From Escherichia phage JSE, in the sequence record EU863408: a stretch of 64,000 nt of DNA; one strand, written 5' to 3'. Below the pieces are notes generated by a model. The model was given only the letters and a program-made list of their open reading frames with translations, had not been told where the DNA came from and ran no database searches. The position numbers and the translations under genes were made by a program. Below are positions 49,736 through 59,989 of the stretch, one piece after another. The first letter of the stretch is position 1. Each line of letters opens with the position of its first letter.

Positions 49736-50134
49736 TTAAGCCAGTCGAGTGAGTTTATAAATTGTTTTAAAGCATAGAGCTTTGATATCGTCTAAAACGC
49801 TCTGTAACGAGCTATCAACATCATTATAAATCTCACTAGCCATTTGCGTTAACTCTTGCAAATAGGCAATTTCGCTAATCTCCTTGCGGACGACCAACTT
49901 TGGCTGATAACGACCAGTGATCCCAATATTGGTTTCAGTGAAATTATCAACCAATTCTTGCATTTCAAGATAGAACTCTTCTAGAGCCTTATGTTTTGCA
50001 TAAGATCCAGGACCAGTTACCCCAAAATGCGCAGAATGCATATAAGTAACACTCATCAGACATTCACCGATAAAGCGGTCAACTTTATTAGCCTTTCCCT
50101 CTTCGGACGTCTTTAGAAAATCACTGAATTTCAT
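49736..50134 (-). CDS. hypothetical protein (weak ferritin/Dps-like pattern)
   Basis: 132 aa; HSAHFGVTGPGSYAKHKALEEFYLEMQE resembles Dps helix A/B; not verified. Confidence 0.4.
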   Translation of the reverse strand: MKFSDFLKTSEEGKANKVDRFIGECLMSVTYMHSAHFGVTGPGSYAKHKALEEFYLEMQELVDNFTETNIGITGRYQPKLVVRKEISEIAYLQELTQMASEIYNDVDSSLQSVLDDIKALCFKTIYKLTRLA

Positions 50135-50423
50135 GTTCTAGATTCTCCATATTATGCAACAGAACAAATTGTTGTGCGGCATATCCCCCCATAATAAAAC
50201 ACTGCCTAGAATCCATACATTTACTACGAGCATACATCTTCATAATATGGGCATGAAATTTCTGGCTGGTTTCAATGGAAGGAGATATTTTGTTTACATA
50301 TACTATCATTGCGCCGTCGAAATAATCAGTAAAGTCACCAGTTGGATCATATTGATCAGCACCGACACTTCCGACCGCAGTCAAGCATATTGCCGCTGTT
50401 AGAGTTTTACGAATAAATGACAT
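50121..50423 (-). CDS. small secreted protein (signal peptide)
   Basis: 100 aa; N-terminus MSFIRKTLTAAICLTAVGSVGA. Confidence 0.45.
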   Translation of the reverse strand: MSFIRKTLTAAICLTAVGSVGADQYDPTGDFTDYFDGAMIVYVNKISPSIETSQKFHAHIMKMYARSKCMDSRQCFIMGGYAAQQFVLLHNMENLEHEIQ

Positions 50424-50456
50424 AAGTCATTCCCCCAGATTGAAAATATTCAGTTA

Positions 50457-50464
50457 TATTTATA
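50457..50464 (-). promoter_or_regulatory. candidate T4-type late promoter (TATAAATA)
   Basis: minus-strand TATAAATA about 33 nt before ATG of 50121-50423, inside a 9-bp inverted repeat. Confidence 0.35.
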
Positions 50465-50491
50465 ATCTGGGGCTTTATTTATGATTAACTC

Positions 50492-51088
50492 TTATTTGGT
50501 AGTACCGTCAATAAAATGTTTACGACACACAGAAACATATTTATCCTCTGCACCAACTTCTATTTGAGCACCATCGCGAATAACATTACCCTCTTTATCT
50601 ACACGAAGGACCATTGTTGCTTTCTTGCCACAATGACAAATACCCTTCATTTCGACCAGTTTATCAGCAAATGCCATTAATGCCGCAGATCCTTCAAATA
50701 GATTGCCCTGAAAGTCAGTGCGAAGGCCATAGCACAGTACAGGGATATTAGCATCATCAACAAGCGCACACAAGCCTAAAACATGCTCTTTAGTCATAAA
50801 TTGGGCTTCATCTACAAATACAGCATCAGGACGCCAGCGATCCGGTCTACGCTTACCTAACGATTCACGATAAACCAAATCGAAAAGATCATCCGATTTA
50901 GTGAAGGTGATCGCTGGGGCACTTAGGCCAATTCGGGAAACGACTTCACTTTCTGAATCTCGATTATCAATCGCTGGCTTAAGAATTAATACTCGCATAT
51001 CACGTTCTGTATAGTTATAAGCACTTTGTAACAGAGAAGTTGATTTGCCAGCGTTCATAGATGCATAGTAGAAATATAATTGCGCCAT
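50492..51088 (-). CDS. tk: thymidine kinase
   Basis: 198 aa; P-loop YYASMNAGKSTSLLQ; C-terminal zinc motif CHCGKKA...CRKH. Confidence 0.9.
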   Translation of the reverse strand: MAQLYFYYASMNAGKSTSLLQSAYNYTERDMRVLILKPAIDNRDSESEVVSRIGLSAPAITFTKSDDLFDLVYRESLGKRRPDRWRPDAVFVDEAQFMTKEHVLGLCALVDDANIPVLCYGLRTDFQGNLFEGSAALMAFADKLVEMKGICHCGKKATMVLRVDKEGNVIRDGAQIEVGAEDKYVSVCRKHFIDGTTK

Positions 51089-51381
51089 TAATTAATCTCC
51101 AAAAATCCAACAAGACCTAAACCGATATAAGTCCAGATACCAATAAAAAAGATGTTAATGCTCATGGCAAGGATAAACCCTTTCAGCGTTTTGGGATACC
51201 CGACCCAATATTCCCGACCATCTTCTAACCGGATCAGTTTATTGCCTTGAGAGTCCATATCAACTACAACATGTTTATTTCGAGATTGCAATAGATATTG
51301 TTTTACAATCTCTACACCCGCCATAATAACAATAACGAAAATAAAAGTCCACACAACAAGATTAATGATAGTCTCAAGCAT
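51088..51381 (-). CDS. small membrane protein
   Basis: 97 aa; two hydrophobic segments; ATGA-coupled to tk. Confidence 0.5.
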   Translation of the reverse strand: MLETIINLVVWTFIFVIVIMAGVEIVKQYLLQSRNKHVVVDMDSQGNKLIRLEDGREYWVGYPKTLKGFILAMSINIFFIGIWTYIGLGLVGFLEIN

Positions 51382-51616
51382 TTTCTATCACCTCCACCCA
51401 ATCAGGTGTTTCCTGAAAGACTCCTTCTCCTTCATGATGGTCGCAACCTTTATTGCTACAATACATCCACCAATCCCACATTCCCCACGGTAAACGCTGC
51501 ATATCGTCGTTACAGCAAGTGAAGATAATAGGCCAACCACATCTAACACATCGGCAGTTTTCTTTCATGTGAGCGGTATTCGGCTTCTTCATAGATGACT
51601 CCAATATAATCGACAT
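51374..51616 (-). CDS. Cys-rich small protein
   Basis: 80 aa; CRCVRCGW...CC...C..C.HHE. Confidence 0.45.
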   Translation of the reverse strand: MSIILESSMKKPNTAHMKENCRCVRCGWPIIFTCCNDDMQRLPWGMWDWWMYCSNKGCDHHEGEGVFQETPDWVEVIENA

Positions 51617-51819
51617 TTACATTTAGGGCAATGCGGTTCTTTAATATAATACCCGTCTGTCTTTGGAACACTAACAGGAGCGGTTTTTATATTGTATTCA
51701 GTGAAACAACGAAAACAAGTTACGTTTTCTACAGACTGACGTTTCACCCAATCACCGGAATATAGATCATTTTTATTTGTCATATTCAACCACCACAATG
51801 TTAATGTCTGGAGTAGCAA
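51589..51819 (-). CDS. zinc-ribbon small protein
   Basis: 76 aa; CFRC...CPKCKC. Confidence 0.45.
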   Translation of the reverse strand: MLLQTLTLWWLNMTNKNDLYSGDWVKRQSVENVTCFRCFTEYNIKTAPVSVPKTDGYYIKEPHCPKCKCRLYWSHL

Positions 51820-52228
51820 TATTAATGATCTCTTCTACACATTCCCACTCAAGGCCACCGATACCGCAACCGATTTTAGGAATATAGAAAGGCTGTATAG
51901 CACCTTCAAAAACATCATTGATAGTCTCAAATCCTTTCAGGATAGCACCATATTCAGCATTTGGACCCGGTCGGAATTGGGTATATAGATTCACCCCGCA
52001 CCAGTTATAACCATTAACTTGATGCGTCCAGACACTAAACCCACCCAGCTTTTCTACCTTACCGCGAGAAGTTTGCTTGTCAATCTCTAACGCTTGCGGG
52101 AACTCTTTCGCGATCTTTGCAGCAATACCAGCACCCATAGTATGAAAACAATTACAACCATGAATTAAATGACCGTTTCCTTGTTTAAACAGGGCGATGA
52201 GATCGCCCTTTACAGTATCAATAATCAT
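51773..52228 (-). CDS. macro-domain-like protein (putative ADP-ribose binding/processing)
   Basis: 151 aa; signature HGCNCFHTMGAGIAAKIAKEFPQA typical of one macro-domain family; SD GAGAGG. Confidence 0.55.
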   Translation of the reverse strand: MIIDTVKGDLIALFKQGNGHLIHGCNCFHTMGAGIAAKIAKEFPQALEIDKQTSRGKVEKLGGFSVWTHQVNGYNWCGVNLYTQFRPGPNAEYGAILKGFETINDVFEGAIQPFYIPKIGCGIGGLEWECVEEIINIATPDINIVVVEYDK

Positions 52229-52243
52229 AATATAAACCTCTCA

Positions 52244-52603
52244 TTAGTCACGGGAAGACAACCCAGCCATAAAACGGCTTAACAGTGTGTCGCGATAAGC
52301 AAAGCATAATTGCTTATCAGGGGCAGTATCACAAAGGTTGCGTTTTGTTTTAGCAAAGCTGGCAATACTCAGATCCCACGCTCGATTTTTTCGTTTTTCG
52401 TCTCGACCTTGTTTGTATGCTTCGTCGAGTTCAAGTGCGATAAAATCACTACACATGTTATCATCATCACAGAAAGTTTTAATGATCTTTTTGTTGATCT
52501 CAAATCCTTTGTATTCGAACTTTGGATAAGGGCGCTCATTACTAGCAAGCGCACCAGCCGAGAACATCATAGCAATCATAGCAATTATTGTCAACTTTTT
52601 CAT
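52244..52603 (-). CDS. secreted protein (signal peptide)
   Basis: 119 aa; N-terminus MKKLTIIAMIAMMFSAGALA; several Cys. Confidence 0.5.
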   Translation of the reverse strand: MKKLTIIAMIAMMFSAGALASNERPYPKFEYKGFEINKKIIKTFCDDDNMCSDFIALELDEAYKQGRDEKRKNRAWDLSIASFAKTKRNLCDTAPDKQLCFAYRDTLLSRFMAGLSSRD

Positions 52604-52610
52604 ATATTCC

Positions 52611-53201
52611 TCAATAGCGTTTAGTCTTAAGAATGCCTTTACTCTTTAGATGGTTAGCCTTTTTTAGTACATCATCAGCATAACCTAACCCGGCTTTATA
52701 GTTCCATCCAGCATTGTAAGAAGCTAGCGCGAGTCGGATATTACCGTTTCGAACATCCAGCCAGTATGCTAACTCATCCATCGCGTAGAATGCAGAAACC
52801 TCGCGATTCATGATAAAGTTGATAGTCTGGCGATCACTCATTTTAACACCGCGCTTTGCATTTTTCGCTTTCACCGTTTTAAGGTAATTTTGAAATAATC
52901 CATAAGCATGATGATTTTTCTTTGGTGCTAAGTTTGCACCCGCGCTTGATTCTTGCCATGCGATACCCGCCAGGATGTGACCTAAACCCTTTCCGTTATA
53001 GCGAATATTCGGATGGTCCTTTTTCAACTTACCGCTTTTCTCGAATTGCTCGCCGTATTGATAGGCGAAATGTAAATTATCTAGTTGGTGTGCTGTAAAG
53101 TTGTCTATCGGCGCTTTTTTGATCGGTGCGCTAGTCGATGCGTGTGTAGCACCAACGGCTAGTGACAGACTCAATACTATCGCTTTTAGAACTTTTAACA
53201 T
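52611..53201 (-). CDS. lytic transglycosylase-like (SLT domain) with signal peptide
   Basis: 196 aa; signal peptide MLKVLKAIVLSLSLAVGATHA; SLT motifs AWQESS, GLFQ, YNAG. Confidence 0.6.
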   Translation of the reverse strand: MLKVLKAIVLSLSLAVGATHASTSAPIKKAPIDNFTAHQLDNLHFAYQYGEQFEKSGKLKKDHPNIRYNGKGLGHILAGIAWQESSAGANLAPKKNHHAYGLFQNYLKTVKAKNAKRGVKMSDRQTINFIMNREVSAFYAMDELAYWLDVRNGNIRLALASYNAGWNYKAGLGYADDVLKKANHLKSKGILKTKRY

Positions 53202-53235
53202 TAATTTCTCCTGTTTGGCTTAACTTTCTGATTCC

Positions 53236-53264
53236 ATAATATAGCCCTATCACCAGAAAGTCAA
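53236..53264 (-). promoter_or_regulatory. sigma70-type promoter
   Basis: minus strand AATGCTTGACT (TTGACT), 17-nt spacer, TATTAT. Confidence 0.45.
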
Positions 53265-53287
53265 GCATTATTTTTAACCAATTTCCA

Positions 53288-53710
53288 TTATTGGTCTACC
53301 TTCAAAACAACCGCCGACATTTTACCCGCCAGTCGTTTTGGATTCTCTATAATCATTCGGCAGCATAGACCGTGATATGGCTTACCCTCTTCGATTAGAT
53401 CTACTGTCATCCCGATCCACATGTTACCGTCAGTAATTTCTAATCGATTCGGTCGGTCTTCCATTTTCAGGAAGTCGAAGATCTCCGGCAAACGAGTTTC
53501 TATCTTATTGAATAGTTCCATTGTCTTATGTTCATCGATATGACGATCGGTTAGACGGTCGATCATATGCGGACTAAAGCGAATGAAAATATACTCACCG
53601 TAACCATCATTCAAGCACTTTTCTTTGATCTGCGCATTGGTTTTGCGCATTTCGGTTTCGAAGAATCTACGCAGCTTACTACGGCGAACATGTACGTTAA
53701 TTGTTTCCAT
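53288..53710 (-). CDS. regB: RegB endoribonuclease
   Basis: track ORF 53288-53752; start METINVHVRRSKLRR at 53708-53710; RLEITDGNMWIGMTV and CRMIIENPKRLAGK match T4 RegB. Confidence 0.75.
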   Translation of the reverse strand: METINVHVRRSKLRRFFETEMRKTNAQIKEKCLNDGYGEYIFIRFSPHMIDRLTDRHIDEHKTMELFNKIETRLPEIFDFLKMEDRPNRLEITDGNMWIGMTVDLIEEGKPYHGLCCRMIIENPKRLAGKMSAVVLKVDQ

Positions 53711-53714
53711 TTTA

Positions 53715-54050
53715 TTATCCTTTCTTAAACAAATTGCGAATCCAGTATACAAACGGGATTTCTTTAAACTTGAATTTCTCTATAGTTAATTCTTTAGTAG
53801 CAAGATGAATACCATAAGCATCATGTGTAACTATATGCCATTTTCTATAGCCCAAATGTGAACAACCGTCTGGATCTAGGTTAATAAGAGTTTCTCGCTC
53901 ACTAGGATTATTTTTCCACAATTTTGTAATAGGATCGCACATAATTCGACCTAGCGTACCATGAATAATCTCACAACGGTAAAGTTTTCCAGCAGTGAGA
54001 TAGGCGCACCCGTCATAGTCGGTATAAACAAACACTTCTTTAACACTCAT
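53715..54050 (-). CDS. hypothetical protein (tandem paralog family C)
   Basis: track ORF 53715-54110; start at ATG 54048-54050 (SD AAAGGAG); DPDGCSHLGYRKW module shared with next two ORFs. Confidence 0.45.
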   Translation of the reverse strand: MSVKEVFVYTDYDGCAYLTAGKLYRCEIIHGTLGRIMCDPITKLWKNNPSERETLINLDPDGCSHLGYRKWHIVTHDAYGIHLATKELTIEKFKFKEIPFVYWIRNLFKKG

Positions 54051-54081
54051 TTTAATACTCCTTTGTTGTTTCGATGGGGGT

Positions 54082-54110
54082 ATATTACTACCCCCGATCA
54101 TGTGTGTCAA
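54082..54110 (-). promoter_or_regulatory. sigma70-type early promoter (PeSL)
   Basis: minus strand TTGACA, 17-nt spacer with GGGGGUA/UACCCCC stem, TAATAT. Confidence 0.55.
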
Positions 54111-54354
54111 CTACTTTTTCAAGATTTTTTTTGATTGCATTCCAAAGACCTTTATTTCCAGGTTGTTTTGGTTCTTCGATCAGTGTCCATGTTCGACCGT
54201 CTAAGTGTGCACAATTTTTAAGGCAAATAAAAATCTGGTGTCCCTTATCAGCACGGATATAACCACTATTCGCAAATCTTTCATGTGGTGTATATTCATA
54301 CAGTGTATTAGGTGTAATATACTTGCGGTTACTATAAGGTGTCATCACATACAT
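54088..54354 (-). CDS. hypothetical protein (family C)
   Basis: track ORF 54088-54372; ...KNCAHLDGRTWTLIEEP module. Confidence 0.45.
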   Translation of the reverse strand: MYVMTPYSNRKYITPNTLYEYTPHERFANSGYIRADKGHQIFICLKNCAHLDGRTWTLIEEPKQPGNKGLWNAIKKNLEKVVDTHDRG

Positions 54355-54548
54355 CATGGTACTAACTCCCAACGATCACCGCGAAGATGAGAACATCCAC
54401 CATCAAGAAGTATCGTAATACGATAACCTATATCATCTTTGATGTAACCGATTGTCGGTGGATTTTCGTCGTCTCGTGCCGGGGTAAAATCATACATCTT
54501 TCCGGGCGTAATATCTTGTCCTTTATTGCTATTGGTATAAACTTGCAT
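54354..54548 (-). CDS. hypothetical protein (family C)
   Basis: 64 aa; ...DGGCSHLRGDRWELVP module. Confidence 0.45.
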   Translation of the reverse strand: MQVYTNSNKGQDITPGKMYDFTPARDDENPPTIGYIKDDIGYRITILLDGGCSHLRGDRWELVP

Positions 54549-54569
54549 TTTCTTAATCTCCTATATTAA

Positions 54570-55268
54570 CTAACCACGGGTATAGTGTTCCAGAACAACG
54601 GTCAGATGAATATATTCTAATAGATCTTTCCAAAAGTCAACATCTGGTTCTTCCGGCATACCGTTTTTCTTTGCCTCTTCACGCGCGAGTTTAACACGCT
54701 CGTAGAGATCTTTCAATTCTTCCCGCACATTATCAAAGGTTCTTTCTCCTAACTTACACGCTAAAATAGAAGAACGTCGCGCGAGCGGGAATTGTAGATC
54801 ACCTGTCTGATAGATTTCAAGTAGCTGATAACCAACACGCAGAGCATGAGAAAGATCTTTCCAGTTACTGAAATACTTTTCAGATTTGGCTACCTGCTTT
54901 TTGAGATAGCCAGACAAACCCCACATACCAACATGATAGAATTTATCTCGATGTGTTCGGATGTATTCCCATTCTCTGGAGGATTCAACCAACATGTTAC
55001 TAGGCGCGTGCACCATATCAATAGCGCCGATATCGCCTTTACATGCCAGATTGATAAACCGTTTTAGACTGAACATATTAACGTCAATATCGTCTTTGGT
55101 GTTCTTGATCCCTTGACCGCTAGTGCTTTGATCATAGTGTTCTTTCATCGATCCTAAGATAATTTCTTTCGCAGTCGGAACAAAGATACCACGATAATCT
55201 TTATCGGAATTTTCAGTATCAAGGCCGTATAAGTGAGATCCGAAGACCATTTTAACCATTGTATGCAT
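54570..55268 (-). CDS. predicted nucleotidyltransferase (pol-beta superfamily)
   Basis: 232 aa; N-terminal GSHLYGLDTENSDKDYRGIF fits the G[SG]...D.D signature. Confidence 0.55.
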   Translation of the reverse strand: MHTMVKMVFGSHLYGLDTENSDKDYRGIFVPTAKEIILGSMKEHYDQSTSGQGIKNTKDDIDVNMFSLKRFINLACKGDIGAIDMVHAPSNMLVESSREWEYIRTHRDKFYHVGMWGLSGYLKKQVAKSEKYFSNWKDLSHALRVGYQLLEIYQTGDLQFPLARRSSILACKLGERTFDNVREELKDLYERVKLAREEAKKNGMPEEPDVDFWKDLLEYIHLTVVLEHYTRG

Positions 55269-55281
55269 AATTAAACCCTCA

Positions 55282-55812
55282 TTAGTATTTTACGTTACGT
55301 CGAACGCCTTTTCGAATCTGACAAATAGCAGACGGTGAAACATTATATTTTCTTGCAAGTTCTACACCCTTCATATGGGGAGAAGATAAAATCTCTTCCA
55401 CTTGGTCGTCGGTAAGTTTTGCGTTTCCGTGGTTCTCTCCCCAATTTTTGTTTAATCCTTCTTCCTTCGCATGAACAAGATTTCGGGTATCTGTCGTCCA
55501 TTCAAGATTATAAAGGTCATAGTTTTGTTTGTTTCCATCCTTATGATTAACTACACGGTAGTTATTTGGATTCGGAATAAACGCAACCGCCATAGCTTTA
55601 TGCATGTTCACGGTTTTTCTAAATCCATCCGGCTTATAACATACTGTAAATTTAGAATAACCAGTTTTACCATAAACACTAATATAATTTCCGGTCTCCG
55701 TATTTCTAACCCTACCATGAGAGCTAATCTCAAATTGAGTGTAGGGCAACAGCGCATCAATCACTTTCCATTCTTCGACAGGATGGTCATCACAATATCT
55801 TTTAATCATCAT
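55282..55812 (-). CDS. free-standing HNH homing endonuclease (NUMOD4/HNH_3 with C-terminal HTH)
   Basis: 176 aa; EEWKVIDALLPYTQFEISSHGRVRN; HKAMAVAFIPNPNNYRVVNHKDGNKQNYDLYNLEWTT; directly after terminator 55822-55852. Confidence 0.8.
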   Translation of the reverse strand: MMIKRYCDDHPVEEWKVIDALLPYTQFEISSHGRVRNTETGNYISVYGKTGYSKFTVCYKPDGFRKTVNMHKAMAVAFIPNPNNYRVVNHKDGNKQNYDLYNLEWTTDTRNLVHAKEEGLNKNWGENHGNAKLTDDQVEEILSSPHMKGVELARKYNVSPSAICQIRKGVRRNVKY

Positions 55813-55821
55813 ATCACCTCA

Positions 55822-55852
55822 TAAAAATAAAGCCAACCCTTTCGGATTGGCT
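55822..55852 (-). terminator. intrinsic terminator after GrcA-like gene
   Basis: minus RNA AGCCAAUCC-GAAA-GGGUUGGCU then UUAUUUUUAU. Confidence 0.6.
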
Positions 55853-55859
55853 TAAAAAT

Positions 55860-56276
55860 TTACATTGCTTCCGTAAAGGTGCGCGAAATAACGTCACGTT
55901 GTTGGTCTGGAGTCAGACTATTGAATCTTACGGCATATCCGCTAACGCGAATGGTTAGTTGCGGATACTTATCAGGATTAGCAACCGCATCGAGAAGAAG
56001 ATCGCGACTCATAACATTGATATTAGCGTGCTGACCACCTTCGACAACCGGAGCACCATTATCTACAATCACCGGACGGAAGCTAGTTGTGTGCAGTGCC
56101 AGAGAATCGACGTCTTCTGCGGTGATCACATGGTCTTCTGCGAAAGTTTTACTAACAATTACTTTAGCGCCGATCAGTGCTTTCGGTTCGGATACCAGAA
56201 TCATAGGCGCGAAGTGTCCACCAATAATAGTACCTTTATGCTCACCTTTCATGATTTGAATTGCTTTAAATTCCAT
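55860..56276 (-). CDS. autonomous glycyl radical cofactor (GrcA/YfiD-like)
   Basis: 138 aa; C-terminus [33 protein letters not shown] near-identical to E. coli GrcA. Confidence 0.8.
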
Positions 56277-56283
56277 AATTCAC

Positions 56284-56412
56284 CTCTTATAGATCAGGAC
56301 GTTCGTCATTAATTTTACCAACCAAAACACCATAGAGTTTATCAGGTTGGACTTTACGATTCTTTTTAATTGTAGCACGGAATCGACGAGCTACGCTATC
56401 TTTATTTTTCAT
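56284..56412 (-). CDS. small basic ORF (42 aa)
   Basis: hand-translated MKNKDSVARRFRATIKKNRKVQPDKLYGVLVGKINDERPDL; TAATG overlap with upstream stop. Confidence 0.35.
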
Positions 56413-56897
56413 TAGTTGATACCTAAGCCAATGAAAATAGGTTGGTCTTCTACATTACCCATCCCAACACTAAGTCGATTCAATTCTAAAAACTGCAATA
56501 CGCTGTCAGTAAATCCGCGCATGGTAGTATCTAGGATAAAAATTGTTTTGTCAAGACTACGACCTCGCCATGTGATCGGATTCAGGAAAGTTCGGATAGA
56601 TGTACAATCTACATCTGAAATATTTACATTTTCACCGCGACCGCGATCTCGGATCGTTTTGGCATGTTCCCGCGTCGTTGAAACGATAAAGACACTATAG
56701 CCTTTTCGCGTATAATGGTCATATAACTTGATTGTAGCGTCTGTATGCCCTGTCTGACGGCCTAAATTGATTGAGACGATGGAATCTAGGTCATCAGCAA
56801 AATTGCGTCGCTTACGGCGTTCTATGATGCCATTTACGGCAGATACACACGCAGCATAAATCAAATCTTTACTTTCTAATTTTACATCAATATTCAT
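56412..56897 (-). CDS. hypothetical protein
   Basis: 161-aa ORF; preceded by inverted repeat ACGGGGAGA...UCUCCCCGU. Confidence 0.5.
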   Translation of the reverse strand: MNIDVKLESKDLIYAACVSAVNGIIERRKRRNFADDLDSIVSINLGRQTGHTDATIKLYDHYTRKGYSVFIVSTTREHAKTIRDRGRGENVNISDVDCTSIRTFLNPITWRGRSLDKTIFILDTTMRGFTDSVLQFLELNRLSVGMGNVEDQPIFIGLGIN

Positions 56898-56959
56898 GGT
56901 AAAGTCTCCAGTGAACGGGGAGAGATCCTTAGATTGTCTCCCCGTTGATGGTTAATATT

Positions 56960-57535
56960 TTATTTTGGATCTGGGAAATTCAATAGAGCATATTCTCCAT
57001 AAAATTTCCTAGCTGCATTATCATAAGCGATTGCAGCTTCGATTTCTGTGTCATATTGTCCAAGAACATGTCTTTGTAGGTTGACCATTATACTAGCTCT
57101 CCATTTCTTACGCAAATCCTTCCTGTTACACTTACTAACACCCTTATACACACTAGAAAACTTTTTAGACTTCTTCTTTCTATTATGTTGATTTTGCGCG
57201 TCGGTTGCCTCCCTAAGATTTGGAGGATTGTTATTAGCAGGATTACCGTCAATATGATCAATTAATCTAACTTGCGTCCCATGTTCTAGAAACCAAACAA
57301 CCCTATGCACGAATAGATGAACTCTAGGAAGACCGTCATCTCTACTATGCCAAAATCTAAGATGACCATCTTTATTTGTTCTGACTTTAACTAAATCGCC
57401 GTGTTTATATCTACTCCCTAATGGTCGTCCTTTGATAGCTTTACTATCGACTCTATAATATAAGATACCCTCTATATGAGCATATCTAAGTTTTATCTCG
57501 TTTTGTAGGGATTCATCCCAATATTTAAAAGCCAT
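56960..57535 (-). CDS. free-standing HNH homing endonuclease with AP2-type domain (paralog of 3019-3582)
   Basis: 191 aa; HRVVWFLEHGTQVRLIDHIDGNPANNNPPNLREAT; also similar to 3019-3582 at nucleotide level. Confidence 0.8.
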   Translation of the reverse strand: MAFKYWDESLQNEIKLRYAHIEGILYYRVDSKAIKGRPLGSRYKHGDLVKVRTNKDGHLRFWHSRDDGLPRVHLFVHRVVWFLEHGTQVRLIDHIDGNPANNNPPNLREATDAQNQHNRKKKSKKFSSVYKGVSKCNRKDLRKKWRASIMVNLQRHVLGQYDTEIEAAIAYDNAARKFYGEYALLNFPDPK

Positions 57536-57580
57536 TTTATAATCCTCACAAAGCCAGCGATTAAGCTGGCTTTATTTTAG

Positions 57581-57970
57581 TTATACCGGGTCTGGATATA
57601 CCTTTTTATCGAGTTCCATATGCGGTCCGTCTTTAAAAGTAACCCAATCAACACCGCAGATAACAGGAACACCCAATTCTCGACCAGCTTGTTTAAATGC
57701 ATCAGCGATCATACGGTAGTATTTCATGTTCCATGTATCCTTATCTTTCGGATACGCTACAACGTCAACCGCGAAACCGTGAAGATGACGAGATTTCATA
57801 GTCTTAGATTTACCTTCCGCAACATATTTCTTTTGCGTTTCTAGACTACGTACACCTTCCGTAATACCAAAATCGACCGGAGTCAGTTCTAACGCACGAT
57901 GAACGACTTTTACCAGGTCTGGATGCACACCAACAAGCCGATCTTTGCTTCTTTGAGATAATTTAAACAT
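57581..57970 (-). CDS. peptidase M15-type cell-wall hydrolase (L-Ala-D-Glu / D-Ala-D-Ala peptidase fold)
   Basis: 129 aa; SRHLHGFAVDV zinc-binding signature. Confidence 0.65.
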   Translation of the reverse strand: MFKLSQRSKDRLVGVHPDLVKVVHRALELTPVDFGITEGVRSLETQKKYVAEGKSKTMKSRHLHGFAVDVVAYPKDKDTWNMKYYRMIADAFKQAGRELGVPVICGVDWVTFKDGPHMELDKKVYPDPV

Positions 57971-57998
57971 TATTCACCCCCTTTGTGAGTGATAATAT

Positions 57999-58190
57999 TT
58001 AGATCCCGGCGATCCTGCATAGAGTTCTTGTATTAGCACCAATAAGGATAGCATTAACGACAACCATTCCCCAATCAACCCACTGATTATTATAAATGCT
58101 AAATCCGTTTGCTAGGCCAAATACAAGCATTCCGGTACACATACTCAGAGCAATAATCAACATCACGGTAAAACCAAATGCAAATCTCAT
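57999..58190 (-). CDS. small membrane protein
   Basis: 63 aa, two hydrophobic helices. Confidence 0.4.
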   Translation of the reverse strand: MRFAFGFTVMLIIALSMCTGMLVFGLANGFSIYNNQWVDWGMVVVNAILIGANTRTLCRIAGI

Positions 58191-58191
58191 A

Positions 58192-58458
58192 TTATTTTCC
58201 TTTTCTCTGTTTACGTTTATAAAAGTAATACATTACCTCATCGCGTCCGGTGATCCAACATGCTAGGGCGGTAAACAGGTTTACAATTCCCAACACACCT
58301 ACTGACGCGGCGCTGTCAACAGACATAGGAACAGTAAAGGCCATAGCTAACATAGCAACGCCACAAATGACATTAAGCACCATTATAATAAGACCGAAGA
58401 AAACCATTGTCAATCCTCCGACACAAGAAAACCAACAATCACGCCAGTGATAAGACAT
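58192..58458 (-). CDS. small membrane protein
   Basis: 88 aa, multiple hydrophobic segments, basic C-terminus. Confidence 0.45.
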   Translation of the reverse strand: MSYHWRDCWFSCVGGLTMVFFGLIIMVLNVICGVAMLAMAFTVPMSVDSAASVGVLGIVNLFTALACWITGRDEVMYYFYKRKQRKGK

Positions 58459-58601
58459 GATGCGCCGCTAATCAGACAACCCGCACCAAGTGATTCCCAC
58501 CAGATCAGAGAAGCGACAATAACACAGAATCCCCATACTACCGCAATCACAACATAGGCAAGGGTCGCCCAAAACATATATTTGTTCATAATAAATCCCA
58601 T
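58410..58601 (-). CDS. small membrane protein
   Basis: 63 aa, hydrophobic. Confidence 0.4.
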   Translation of the reverse strand: MGFIMNKYMFWATLAYVVIAVVWGFCVIVASLIWWESLGAGCLISGASCLITGVIVGFLVSED

Positions 58602-58774
58602 TCACCAAACAAATAAGAAAAAAGCCATATCAACAGAAACGAGGCAATTGATCCGGCAAGCAAAATGATATTAGAGAATCCGCCGTCTATCCAGGCGACA
58701 AAACAGAATACGCCAGTATAGAAGCATAAACCAATTACAAAGCATACTATAAGCAACCATAGATAAAACGCCAT
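58586..58774 (-). CDS. small membrane protein
   Basis: 62 aa, hydrophobic. Confidence 0.4.
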   Translation of the reverse strand: MAFYLWLLIVCFVIGLCFYTGVFCFVAWIDGGFSNIILLAGSIASFLLIWLFSYLFGEWDLL

Positions 58775-58996
58775 AGAAAGCCCTCCATCGAGATAAATTA
58801 GTGCGGGTAGTACATTACCCTACCCGCATTGTTAATCATCGCAGAGCGTGTTCTAGAACGATTCCACACCAACCGCTAACCACACCCAAACACACAGCAA
58901 CAAGCAGATTCATTCGGTCTTTTGGAATCATCGCAAACAGAACAACACCCACACAGAAAGCCATTACCATTGAAGTTAACATTTGTTCAACCATTA

Positions 58997-59335
58997 TCAC
59001 ACCTTTAAAGTCATAGACGCATAAACATTAATGTCAGGCCAGTTAGGTTCGCAATTATACTCAACATCCCACAAATAAAGCGGTTTAGATGTATCAGCCA
59101 AGTTTTTAAAATCTTCTACCCACATTTCAAGGCTATATGATGGATAAACTAGGCTATCATATCCGCCGTAACGTTGGCCTACTGGTCGGTCAGTAAAAAC
59201 TACCTCAAGATCCGGTAATTCTTTTTCAAGGATAACCGCCAGCGCATAAATCAGACGGTCTTCCTTGTTACGCTGCCGAAGGACCGTTGTCAGTGGGTTT
59301 TTCTGGTTCACTAGCAAGCACCTCCACATTTTCAC
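58997..59335 (-). CDS. hypothetical protein
   Basis: 112-aa track ORF; start uncertain (overlaps upstream ORF). Confidence 0.4.
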   Translation of the reverse strand: MKMWRCLLVNQKNPLTTVLRQRNKEDRLIYALAVILEKELPDLEVVFTDRPVGQRYGGYDSLVYPSYSLEMWVEDFKNLADTSKPLYLWDVEYNCEPNWPDINVYASMTLKV

Positions 59336-59588
59336 AGAATGAAATTTTCACAGACACAATTTTACCATAAGTGAAGAATGAATATACATTATCGAGATAT
59401 TCAACGTCACCTACAATCACATCAAACTGCGGATCAGCAACCGCCGCAACATATTCTACCAGTTCATCAAGAGAATGCAACTTAATTTCATCAATTCGGC
59501 TGTATTTGGTTGCATCTTTGATTTTAAAACCACGTTCTTTCAGCTTATCAATTAGAATTTCACGCGGAGTTTCAAACAGTTTGCTCAT
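59268..59588 (-). CDS. hypothetical protein
   Basis: 106 aa; GAGGATTATATT-ATG. Confidence 0.45.
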   Translation of the reverse strand: MSKLFETPREILIDKLKERGFKIKDATKYSRIDEIKLHSLDELVEYVAAVADPQFDVIVGDVEYLDNVYSFFTYGKIVSVKISFCENVEVLASEPEKPTDNGPSAA

Positions 59589-59610
59589 AATATAATCCTC
59601 ACATAGTTAA

Positions 59611-59805
59611 TCAATGGTCAATAATCTTGCACATTATAACAGAAAGAACAAAGACCGCAACCCACATATAGATCCCAGCAATCAATGCAATTTCAATATC
59701 ACAATATCCAAGATATACAACAGGAATAAAAACAAACATACAGACCAGCGCAAAGAAACTAGCAAAGACGCTAGAAAATCCGATAGCAGTATTAGTAATA
59801 TTCAT
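59611..59805 (-). CDS. small membrane protein
   Basis: 64 aa, hydrophobic. Confidence 0.4.
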   Translation of the reverse strand: MNITNTAIGFSSVFASFFALVCMFVFIPVVYLGYCDIEIALIAGIYMWVAVFVLSVIMCKIIDH

Positions 59806-59806
59806 A

Positions 59807-59989
59807 TTAACAATCCTCGCGGCTTAAGTCAACAGCAATTGCATACAGCATAATGAATATGCTAGCCGATCCGAGAATCAATGCACCCTCACATTTTGAA
59901 ACTCGCTCATCAAAATGTAACATTATCCATCCGAGGATGTTAAAGGCGCAGACCGCGCCTATGTTCGCTAACCAATTAATCTTTTTCAT
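59807..59989 (-). CDS. small membrane protein
   Basis: 60 aa, hydrophobic. Confidence 0.4.
   Translation of the reverse strand: MKKINWLANIGAVCAFNILGWIMLHFDERVSKCEGALILGSASIFIMLYAIAVDLSREDC

Follow-up and report, generated by a model that had tools for sequence, protein, structure and literature searches.

The rI to endolysin interval of Escherichia phage JSE: an RB49-type peptidase endolysin and predicted exported relatives of T4 RI, Vs and Vs.1

We investigated four open reading frames (ORFs) in an early region of Escherichia phage JSE (sequence record EU863408), within a stretch of 64,000 nucleotides that we call the window. With a probability of roughly 0.9, the interval contains RB49-like versions of the T4 genes rI, vs and vs.1 together with an RB49-type peptidase that acts as the sole soluble endolysin of the phage; Vs.1 and Vs are probably exported, and our guess for their role is the remodelling of murein. 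This reading is founded on gene identities, conserved residues, synteny, and the absence of an e-type enzyme. Its central points are already known: in RB49-like phages a T5-type peptidase takes the place of T4 lysozyme, the antiholin RI is secreted, and an SLT domain is encoded by vs.1. The analysis re-derives this published knowledge from raw sequence. The window represents the first ~64 kb of the genome of a Krischvirus, that is, an RB49-like T-even phage, and covers ~40% of the genome. The interval is matched by 57 phage records at 94-98% identity, nearly all of them from Krischvirus phages (RB49 group, Straboviridae) of Escherichia or Shigella. The four ORFs, listed with other features in Table 1, are all located on the minus strand, and each starts with ATG behind a purine-rich Shine-Dalgarno sequence.

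The arrangement of the genes is that expected from T4. The T4 record gives the gene order rI.-1, rI, rI.1, tk, tk.1-4, vs, vs.1, regB, vs.3-8, denV, ipII, ipIII, e, and a comparison of the window proteins with this stretch of T4 (tblastn) finds collinear matches for rI.-1, tk, tk.4, vs.1, regB, and vs.6. The Pfam and PHROG assignments in the region are RI, SLT, M15, RegB, Macro, and Vs. Because the matches are collinear with T4, the interval is, by the similarity of its genes, an ordinary T-even early region, the Krischvirus counterpart of T4 rI.-1-rI-tk-tk.1..4-vs-vs.1-regB-...-e.

The peptidase is nearly identical to two proteins in the PDB. The matches are to 23ri (E 2.3e-77) and 8q2g (E 2.9e-74); residues 1-103 are identical to the former and differ from the latter only at F66L and P102S. 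The record 8q2g is named peptidoglycan L-alanyl-D-glutamate endopeptidase, and we take it to be EndoRB49, a member of MEROPS family M15C. Serratia ChiX (5opz) and the endolysin of phage T5, EndoT5 (2mxz), are more distant relatives. The motif SRHLHGFAVDV is found at residue 60, and both the Pfam family Peptidase_M15_4 (PF13539; 33.9 bits, cut-off 25) and the endolysin family phrog_465 (E 5.5e-63) match the ORF. In EndoRB49 the zinc ligands are H62, D69, and H117, the catalytic residue is D114, and W109 is conserved (PMC10487532); the protein from JSE has all five at matching positions. The two enzymes also agree in length and in having no signal sequence, with the hydrophobicity of the JSE protein over ten residues reaching a maximum of 0.8, and the gene is found where other Krischvirus genomes have it. 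The difference from EndoRB49 resides in the last 26 residues, which form the distinct variant VICGVDWVTFKDGPHMELDKKVYPDPV. The purified RB49 enzyme lyses cell walls with ~3200 U/mg (PMC10487532), and its activity on peptidoglycan was also published in a related study (PMC8140593).

As an alternative, the peptidase could be an accessory wall hydrolase and the true endolysin the product of a gene at another place in the genome, of which the window represents only a part. T4 lysozyme finds no match in the 64-kb window (tblastn, best E 0.8). For a search for endolysins across a whole genome we used the complete genome of phage vB-Eco-KMB43 (hereafter KMB43), whose positions 1 to ~61.9 kb, beginning with rIIA, are collinear with the whole window at 97-98% identity. 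The sole sequence similar to T4 E in that genome is the lysozyme domain inside gp5, the baseplate hub and tail lysozyme (3e-36), and a single gene, the M15 gene, is annotated there as endolysin. Because the complete genome of this relative has no e-type enzyme except the gp5 domain, the M15 peptidase is identified as the endolysin, an assignment that for the RB49 type is already published knowledge. The annotation of the gene as endolysin in relatives, the lytic activity of the RB49 enzyme, and a translational control architecture at the gene that is similar to the one of T4 e (see below) also argue against an accessory role, which we consider very improbable.

An earlier sequence-only reading of the window had recognized the M15 signature, had reported that no T4 e-type muramidase is encoded in the window, and had proposed the peptidase as the possible equivalent of the endolysin, to be considered accessory if a canonical endolysin existed elsewhere. 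The signature is present, with Peptidase_M15_4 above its cut-off, the muramidase is absent from the window, and the proposal is borne out by the near-identity to 23ri and 8q2g and by the EndoRB49 residues; only the gp5 lysozyme domain turned up in the KMB43 genome. The same reading had described the gene as located outside a recognizable lysis cassette. This is true, but the arrangement is nothing unusual. In KMB43, a single T-type holin is annotated by the tail-fibre genes and a single spanin close to pseT, the gene for polynucleotide kinase, and lysis genes scattered in this way, with rI next to tk, are the normal T-even layout.

The only soluble endolysin of the phage is predicted to be cytoplasmic; as a zinc L-alanoyl-D-glutamate peptidase of the type of EndoT5 and EndoRB49, it would cross to the murein via the T holin and cut the peptide stem. 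It would replace the unrelated muramidase E at roughly the same place on the map: the M15 gene is found a few genes past vs.6, and T4 e, too, is located downstream of regB and vs.6. The two enzymes have in common the holin-dependent role as endolysin; however, they have no relation in sequence or fold to each other, T4 E belonging to GH24, and the M15 enzyme cuts the peptide stem, not the glycan.

The control of translation appears to follow the T4 pattern as well. Upstream of the M15 gene, the 28-nt spacer is predicted to fold into a hairpin that covers the Shine-Dalgarno sequence and the AUG, and the box TCTAAATA is found in its 5' arm. The layout at T4 e is the same: the hairpin there (-15.1 kcal/mol, z -4.0) carries two TATAAATA boxes on its 5' arm, and this combination of hairpin and late promoter is the published basis of the late-only translation of T4 lysozyme. 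By analogy, the JSE endolysin is probably translated late, as a transcript that starts from the TCTAAATA box would lack the hairpin that hides the ribosome-binding site. The presence of this layout at two unrelated enzymes suggests that the regulatory design was kept when the endolysin enzyme was replaced. The 79 other M15 loci that we compared have unrelated genomic contexts.

The three remaining ORFs begin with predicted signal peptides, as the sequence-only reading had said. We called these with a heuristic of our own, together with conservation across each family and the published experiments on T4 RI. In each N-terminus, one or two K/R residues precede a 10-residue hydrophobic window with a mean Kyte-Doolittle value of 2.3-2.6, and small residues follow at positions -3 and -1. 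In pairwise alignments, T4 RI, Vs, and Vs.1 carry matching N-terminal signals.

The first of these ORFs is, judged by family and position, the RI antiholin. It matches PF24205 (T4-like virus antiholin) with 80.3 bits (cut-off 27, E 9e-23) and phrog_1246 ('lysis inhibition') with E 1.8e-24, finds the T4 antiholin structure 6psk as a weak match, and its counterparts in relatives are annotated as rI. Although only 27% identical to T4 RI, for which a structure with the T holin (6psh) is also available, it retains both cysteines of the mature domain, a domain of ~75 residues predicted to be periplasmic, a signal peptide of the cleavable type, and the gene position between rI.-1 and tk. In T4, the signal peptide of RI is a normal one and is removed after Ala24; the mature form is freed into the periplasm and binds the holin T (Mehner-Breitfeld et al., PMC8385771). 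The JSE protein has two K/R residues, a hydrophobic window of 2.28, and a heuristically predicted cleavage between VGA and D after residue 22, two residues before the T4 site (between IEA and N at residue 24) and near to it in the alignment. By homology to T4, this RI would be exported by the Sec pathway with cleavage of its signal peptide, and by analogy it may bind the Krischvirus T holin. A perfect TATAAATA box precedes the gene, one of only 3 perfect matches in the 64 kb, and its position suggests that it may function as a late promoter of rI. In T4 the gene rI.1 is located between rI and tk; in the window, the rI-tk spacer (50424-50491, 68 nt) has no rI.1 homologue and contains this box in its place.

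The vs.1 product is 49% identical to T4 Vs.1, a conserved ORF of T4-like phages (PMC1524935), with which it shares the signal peptide and the SLT motifs E-S, GLxQ, and SYNAG. In the JSE protein we find, as the sequence-only reading had, AWQESS (residue 81), GLFQ (101), and YNAG (162), and the Pfam SLT family (PF01464) scores 26.1 bits (cut-off 21.3, E 6.6e-6). Our heuristic predicts cleavage between THA and S after residue 21. Across 21 homologues with 39-90% identity, the residues E84, S86, Y100-G101, F103-Q104-N105, S161-Y162, A164, and G165 are invariant and N163 is nearly so, and every complete sequence in the alignment starts with a signal peptide. The invariant residues are those of the E-S, GLxQ, and AYNxG motifs of the family-1 lytic transglycosylases. 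For the AlphaFold2 model of Vs.1 (pLDDT 82.4), each of the top 21 Foldseek matches in the PDB is either a lytic transglycosylase, such as MltD, Slt, or Cj0843, or a GH23 chitinase, and most have a probability of 0.93-1.00; a sequence search of the PDB returned chance immunoglobulin matches only. Vs.1 thus has the motifs of Slt70 and MltD, and its predicted fold matches the catalytic domains of MltD and Slt, whereas it consists of a single small domain of ~175 mature residues without superhelical or LysM domains. In our view, Vs.1 is probably a lytic transglycosylase that is exported to the periplasm; its catalytic Glu-Ser motif is intact, and the protein is conserved across the T4-like phages. 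The similarity of vs.1 to SLT was noted in 2006, when 'some role in cell lysis' was suggested (PMC1524935); the literature that we searched contained no experiments on Vs.1 and no report of an activity or phenotype.

The gene directly downstream of vs.1 encodes Vs. The JSE protein matches phrog_1256 ('valyl tRNA synthetase modifier') with E 1.8e-33 and is 31% identical to T4 Vs, and PF26829 is carried by the Vs homologues. It agrees with T4 Vs in size, in the signal peptide, in four cysteines, and in the position of the gene between tk.4 and vs.1. We find nothing that separates it from the T4 Vs family; the mismatch is between the export-type features of the family and its annotated cytoplasmic target. 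Cleavage is predicted by the heuristic between ALA and S after residue 20, and the N-terminus of T4 Vs reads MTKILVLCIGLISFSASASA up to the predicted site, with D following. The same heuristic finds a signal peptide in 34 of 34 unique Vs proteins, and, one truncated copy apart, the mature part of each contains exactly four cysteines. Among 15 diverse homologues, with identities of 24-83%, C45, C51, C91, and C100 are invariant. A word-indexed search for homologues returned 5 close relatives and an exhaustive HMMER search 16; all 16 are small phage-type proteins, with no bacterial relative among them that would give a functional clue. One distant metagenomic homologue, P0034, has an apparent lipoprotein signal (…ALSGC) that replaces the signal-peptidase I site, which appears to be independent support for a family that acts outside the cytoplasm.

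The AlphaFold2 model of Vs has a four-helix core (pLDDT 86-96). A Foldseek search of the PDB with this model gave no match better than E 3, the matches to saposin and to designed helical bundles being uninformative, and a sequence search of the PDB found nothing. A signal peptide together with four conserved cysteines would be the hallmarks of an exported disulfide protein, and they fit poorly with the name 'valyl-tRNA synthetase modifier'. Vs is therefore depicted in our model, with export as a prediction, as an exported small helical protein with four cysteines. T4 Vs has a calculated mass of 11.0 kDa in the mature form and 13.1 kDa as precursor; the purified T4 factor reportedly had ~10 kDa, nearer to the processed form.

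The literature points to a different place of action. The 115-amino-acid T4 Vs is assigned the binding of the host valyl-tRNA ligase, as cited in PMC8076793. According to a recent preprint, vs stood out in a transposon screen as the T4 gene with the strongest depletion in minimal glucose medium, deletion of vs from T4 causes a fitness defect that depends on the medium, and the role of the modification is stated to be unknown (bioRxiv 10.1101/2025.11.20.689424). One could assume that Vs is indeed a cytoplasmic modifier of the host valyl-tRNA synthetase (ValRS), that its N-terminus is not used for export or leads to partial export, and that its adjacency to vs.1 reflects inherited order. The fitness defect fits a translation-related role, and adjacency is weak evidence in a region that is syntenic among T4-like phages. 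However, a canonical signal peptide in every unique member, cysteines that are invariant across highly divergent sequences, and a member with an apparent lipoprotein signal (LSGC) are difficult to reconcile with a cytoplasmic protein, as is the mass reported for the T4 factor, which is nearer to the processed form. Full-length His-tagged T4 Vs was also insoluble when made in the cytoplasm (PMC8076793). We regard a cytoplasmic Vs as quite possible, though not as the probable state of affairs.

The preferred reading has Vs exported, and the neighbourhood of the gene bears on what it might do there. Of the 41 closest among 69 viral loci that encode Vs.1 relatives, 38 have a Vs-like gene whose start is no more than ~20 nt from the stop of vs.1. 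Two points speak against a functional pair: synteny extends over the whole region in any case, and Vs is missing from several Aeromonas-type phages that have Vs.1. It is a tentative and somewhat doubtful suggestion that the members of the Vs family are Sec-exported periplasmic disulfide proteins that are made with Vs.1 and act in the envelope, for example by regulating or targeting Vs.1, or in a murein turnover that is important in minimal medium. Our best guess for Vs and Vs.1 together would be an early local remodelling or turnover of the host murein, with no part in end-point lysis. If Vs is periplasmic, then its association with ValRS may reflect a mis-assigned ORF, a minor fraction that is not exported, or binding after breakage of the cells. 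We found no discussion of Vs export in the literature searched, which lacked the main T4 genome review, so an earlier remark is possible. Were Vs periplasmic, the usual label of this 50-year-old T4 gene, which hundreds of phage genomes have taken over, would be misleading, and a conserved pair of early periplasmic proteins would offer a tractable question on how T-even phages act on the host murein before lysis.

The coordinates of the four ORFs and the motif reading in the sequence-only account were accurate, but the function that it attached to the secreted ORFs is not supported as stated. It had considered the three proteins as candidates for superinfection exclusion or for the inhibition of periplasmic lysozymes; such proteins might act against an incoming tail lysozyme in the manner of T4 Spackle. 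RI, Vs, and Vs.1 are indeed all predicted to be periplasmic, and the small exported Vs, encoded directly after the gene for a muralytic enzyme, is compatible with a pair of enzyme and regulator. RI does respond to superinfection; however, the response is a delay of lysis (lysis inhibition) and not the exclusion of the second phage (PMC8385771), and the known target of this antiholin family is the holin, not the entry of another phage. Vs.1 has the fold of an enzyme with an intact catalytic motif rather than that of an inhibitor, the model of Vs, a conserved T4 protein, matches no known lysozyme-inhibitor fold, and the Aeromonas-type phages that lack Vs nevertheless encode Vs.1. This explanation is unlikely, and we expect Vs and Vs.1 to be neither exclusion proteins nor lysozyme inhibitors.

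Several points weigh against the overall reading given at the outset. The Foldseek E-values for Vs.1 are modest (0.02) and the TM scores are 0.41-0.50, although the probabilities are near 1. The signal peptides were called by a heuristic and not by SignalP, and an exported Vs conflicts with the role in the literature of binding a cytoplasmic synthetase. The absence of a second endolysin was judged in KMB43 and not in the complete genome of JSE. The TCTAAATA box at the endolysin is mismatched at position 2, and the stem of the hairpin is invariant in five Krischvirus sequences, so that covariation provides no support for it. Finally, export, the time at which the genes are expressed, and what Vs and Vs.1 do are inferred here rather than observed.

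Table 1. Features of the interval, with positions in the window.
Feature	Position	Strand	Basis
rI, periplasmic antiholin (lysis-inhibition regulator), 100 amino acids	50121-50423	-	Pfam, PHROG, alignment with T4 RI; predicted signal peptide
Perfect T4-type late-promoter box TATAAATA	50457-50464	-	34 nt upstream of the rI start codon
vs homologue, 119 amino acids; predicted Sec-type signal peptide and mature four-cysteine helical protein	52244-52603	-	PHROG, alignment with T4 Vs, AlphaFold2 model
vs.1 homologue, 196 amino acids; predicted signal peptide and SLT/GH23-type lytic transglycosylase domain, catalytic Glu84	52611-53201	-	T4 Vs.1, Pfam, motifs, AlphaFold2 model
Sigma-70-like promoter match TTGACT-17-TATTAT	53236-53264	-	Consensus scan, 10/12 positions, pattern match only; just upstream of vs.1
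Free-standing HNH/AP2 homing-endonuclease gene	56960-57535	-	Directly downstream of the endolysin gene
Endolysin, EndoRB49-type zinc L-alanoyl-D-glutamate peptidase (M15C), 129 amino acids, no export signal	57581-57970	-	PDB, Pfam, PHROG, active-site residues
Variant last 26 codons of the endolysin	57581-57661	-	Abrupt switch from identity to dense substitution at codon 104
Predicted RNA hairpin in which upstream sequence pairs with the Shine-Dalgarno sequence and the AUG of the endolysin gene	57964-58001	-	Minimum free energy -15.9 kcal/mol, z -3.3
Late-promoter-like box TCTAAATA on the 5' arm of the hairpin	57996-58003	-	One mismatch from the late-promoter consensus

The 3' end of the endolysin gene has a history of its own. 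The gene matches the RB49/KFS-EC type through codon 103, and the variant end that follows retains W109, D114, and H117. The gene downstream of it encodes a free-standing homing endonuclease, which matches the Pfam family HNH_3 (2.6e-10) and, under the cut-off, AP2 (2e-5). All three compared genomes that carry this endonuclease gene (the window, phiS, and KMB43) have the variant end VICGVDWVTFKDGPHMELDKKVYPDPV; it is missing from KFS-EC, which has no HNH/AP2 gene at this position, and from both PDB sequences. From this distribution the variant end resembles what homing of the endonuclease would leave behind, either a co-conversion tract or an allele that resists cleavage.

On the other side of the endolysin gene, just upstream in the order of transcription, seven small ORFs of 52-71 amino acids occupy 57999-59989 on the minus strand. 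One of these has a single predicted membrane helix and the other six have two. The four that were scanned belong to PHROGs of unknown function, and there is no detectable similarity among the seven. We rejected the idea that they form a holin cassette: the T-type holin of KMB43 is annotated elsewhere, the PHROG matches are limited to families of unknown function, and the ORFs are not paralogues.

The gene next to vs (51773-52228, minus strand) encodes a macro-domain protein (Pfam Macro 1.3e-6) with 44% identity to T4 Tk.4, an ORF with a macro/A1pp motif. A T4 macrodomain protein, AdfM, was proposed in a 2025 preprint to counter the DarT2 defence toxin. That AdfM is Tk.4 is our own assumption.

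Downstream of regB, the window contains a gene for a nucleotidyltransferase (Pfam RlaP; 54570-55268, minus strand) with 45% identity to T4 NrdC.11. In T4 nrdC.11 is found on the other side of rI, which represents a local rearrangement relative to T4. Between this gene and vs.6, which encodes a glycyl-radical, GrcA-like protein, a second free-standing homing-endonuclease gene, of the HNH/NUMOD4 type, is located at 55282-55812 on the minus strand. It is present in phiS and missing from KFS-EC and KMB43, and its presence or absence explains the coverage classes of 86-94% in the genome comparison.

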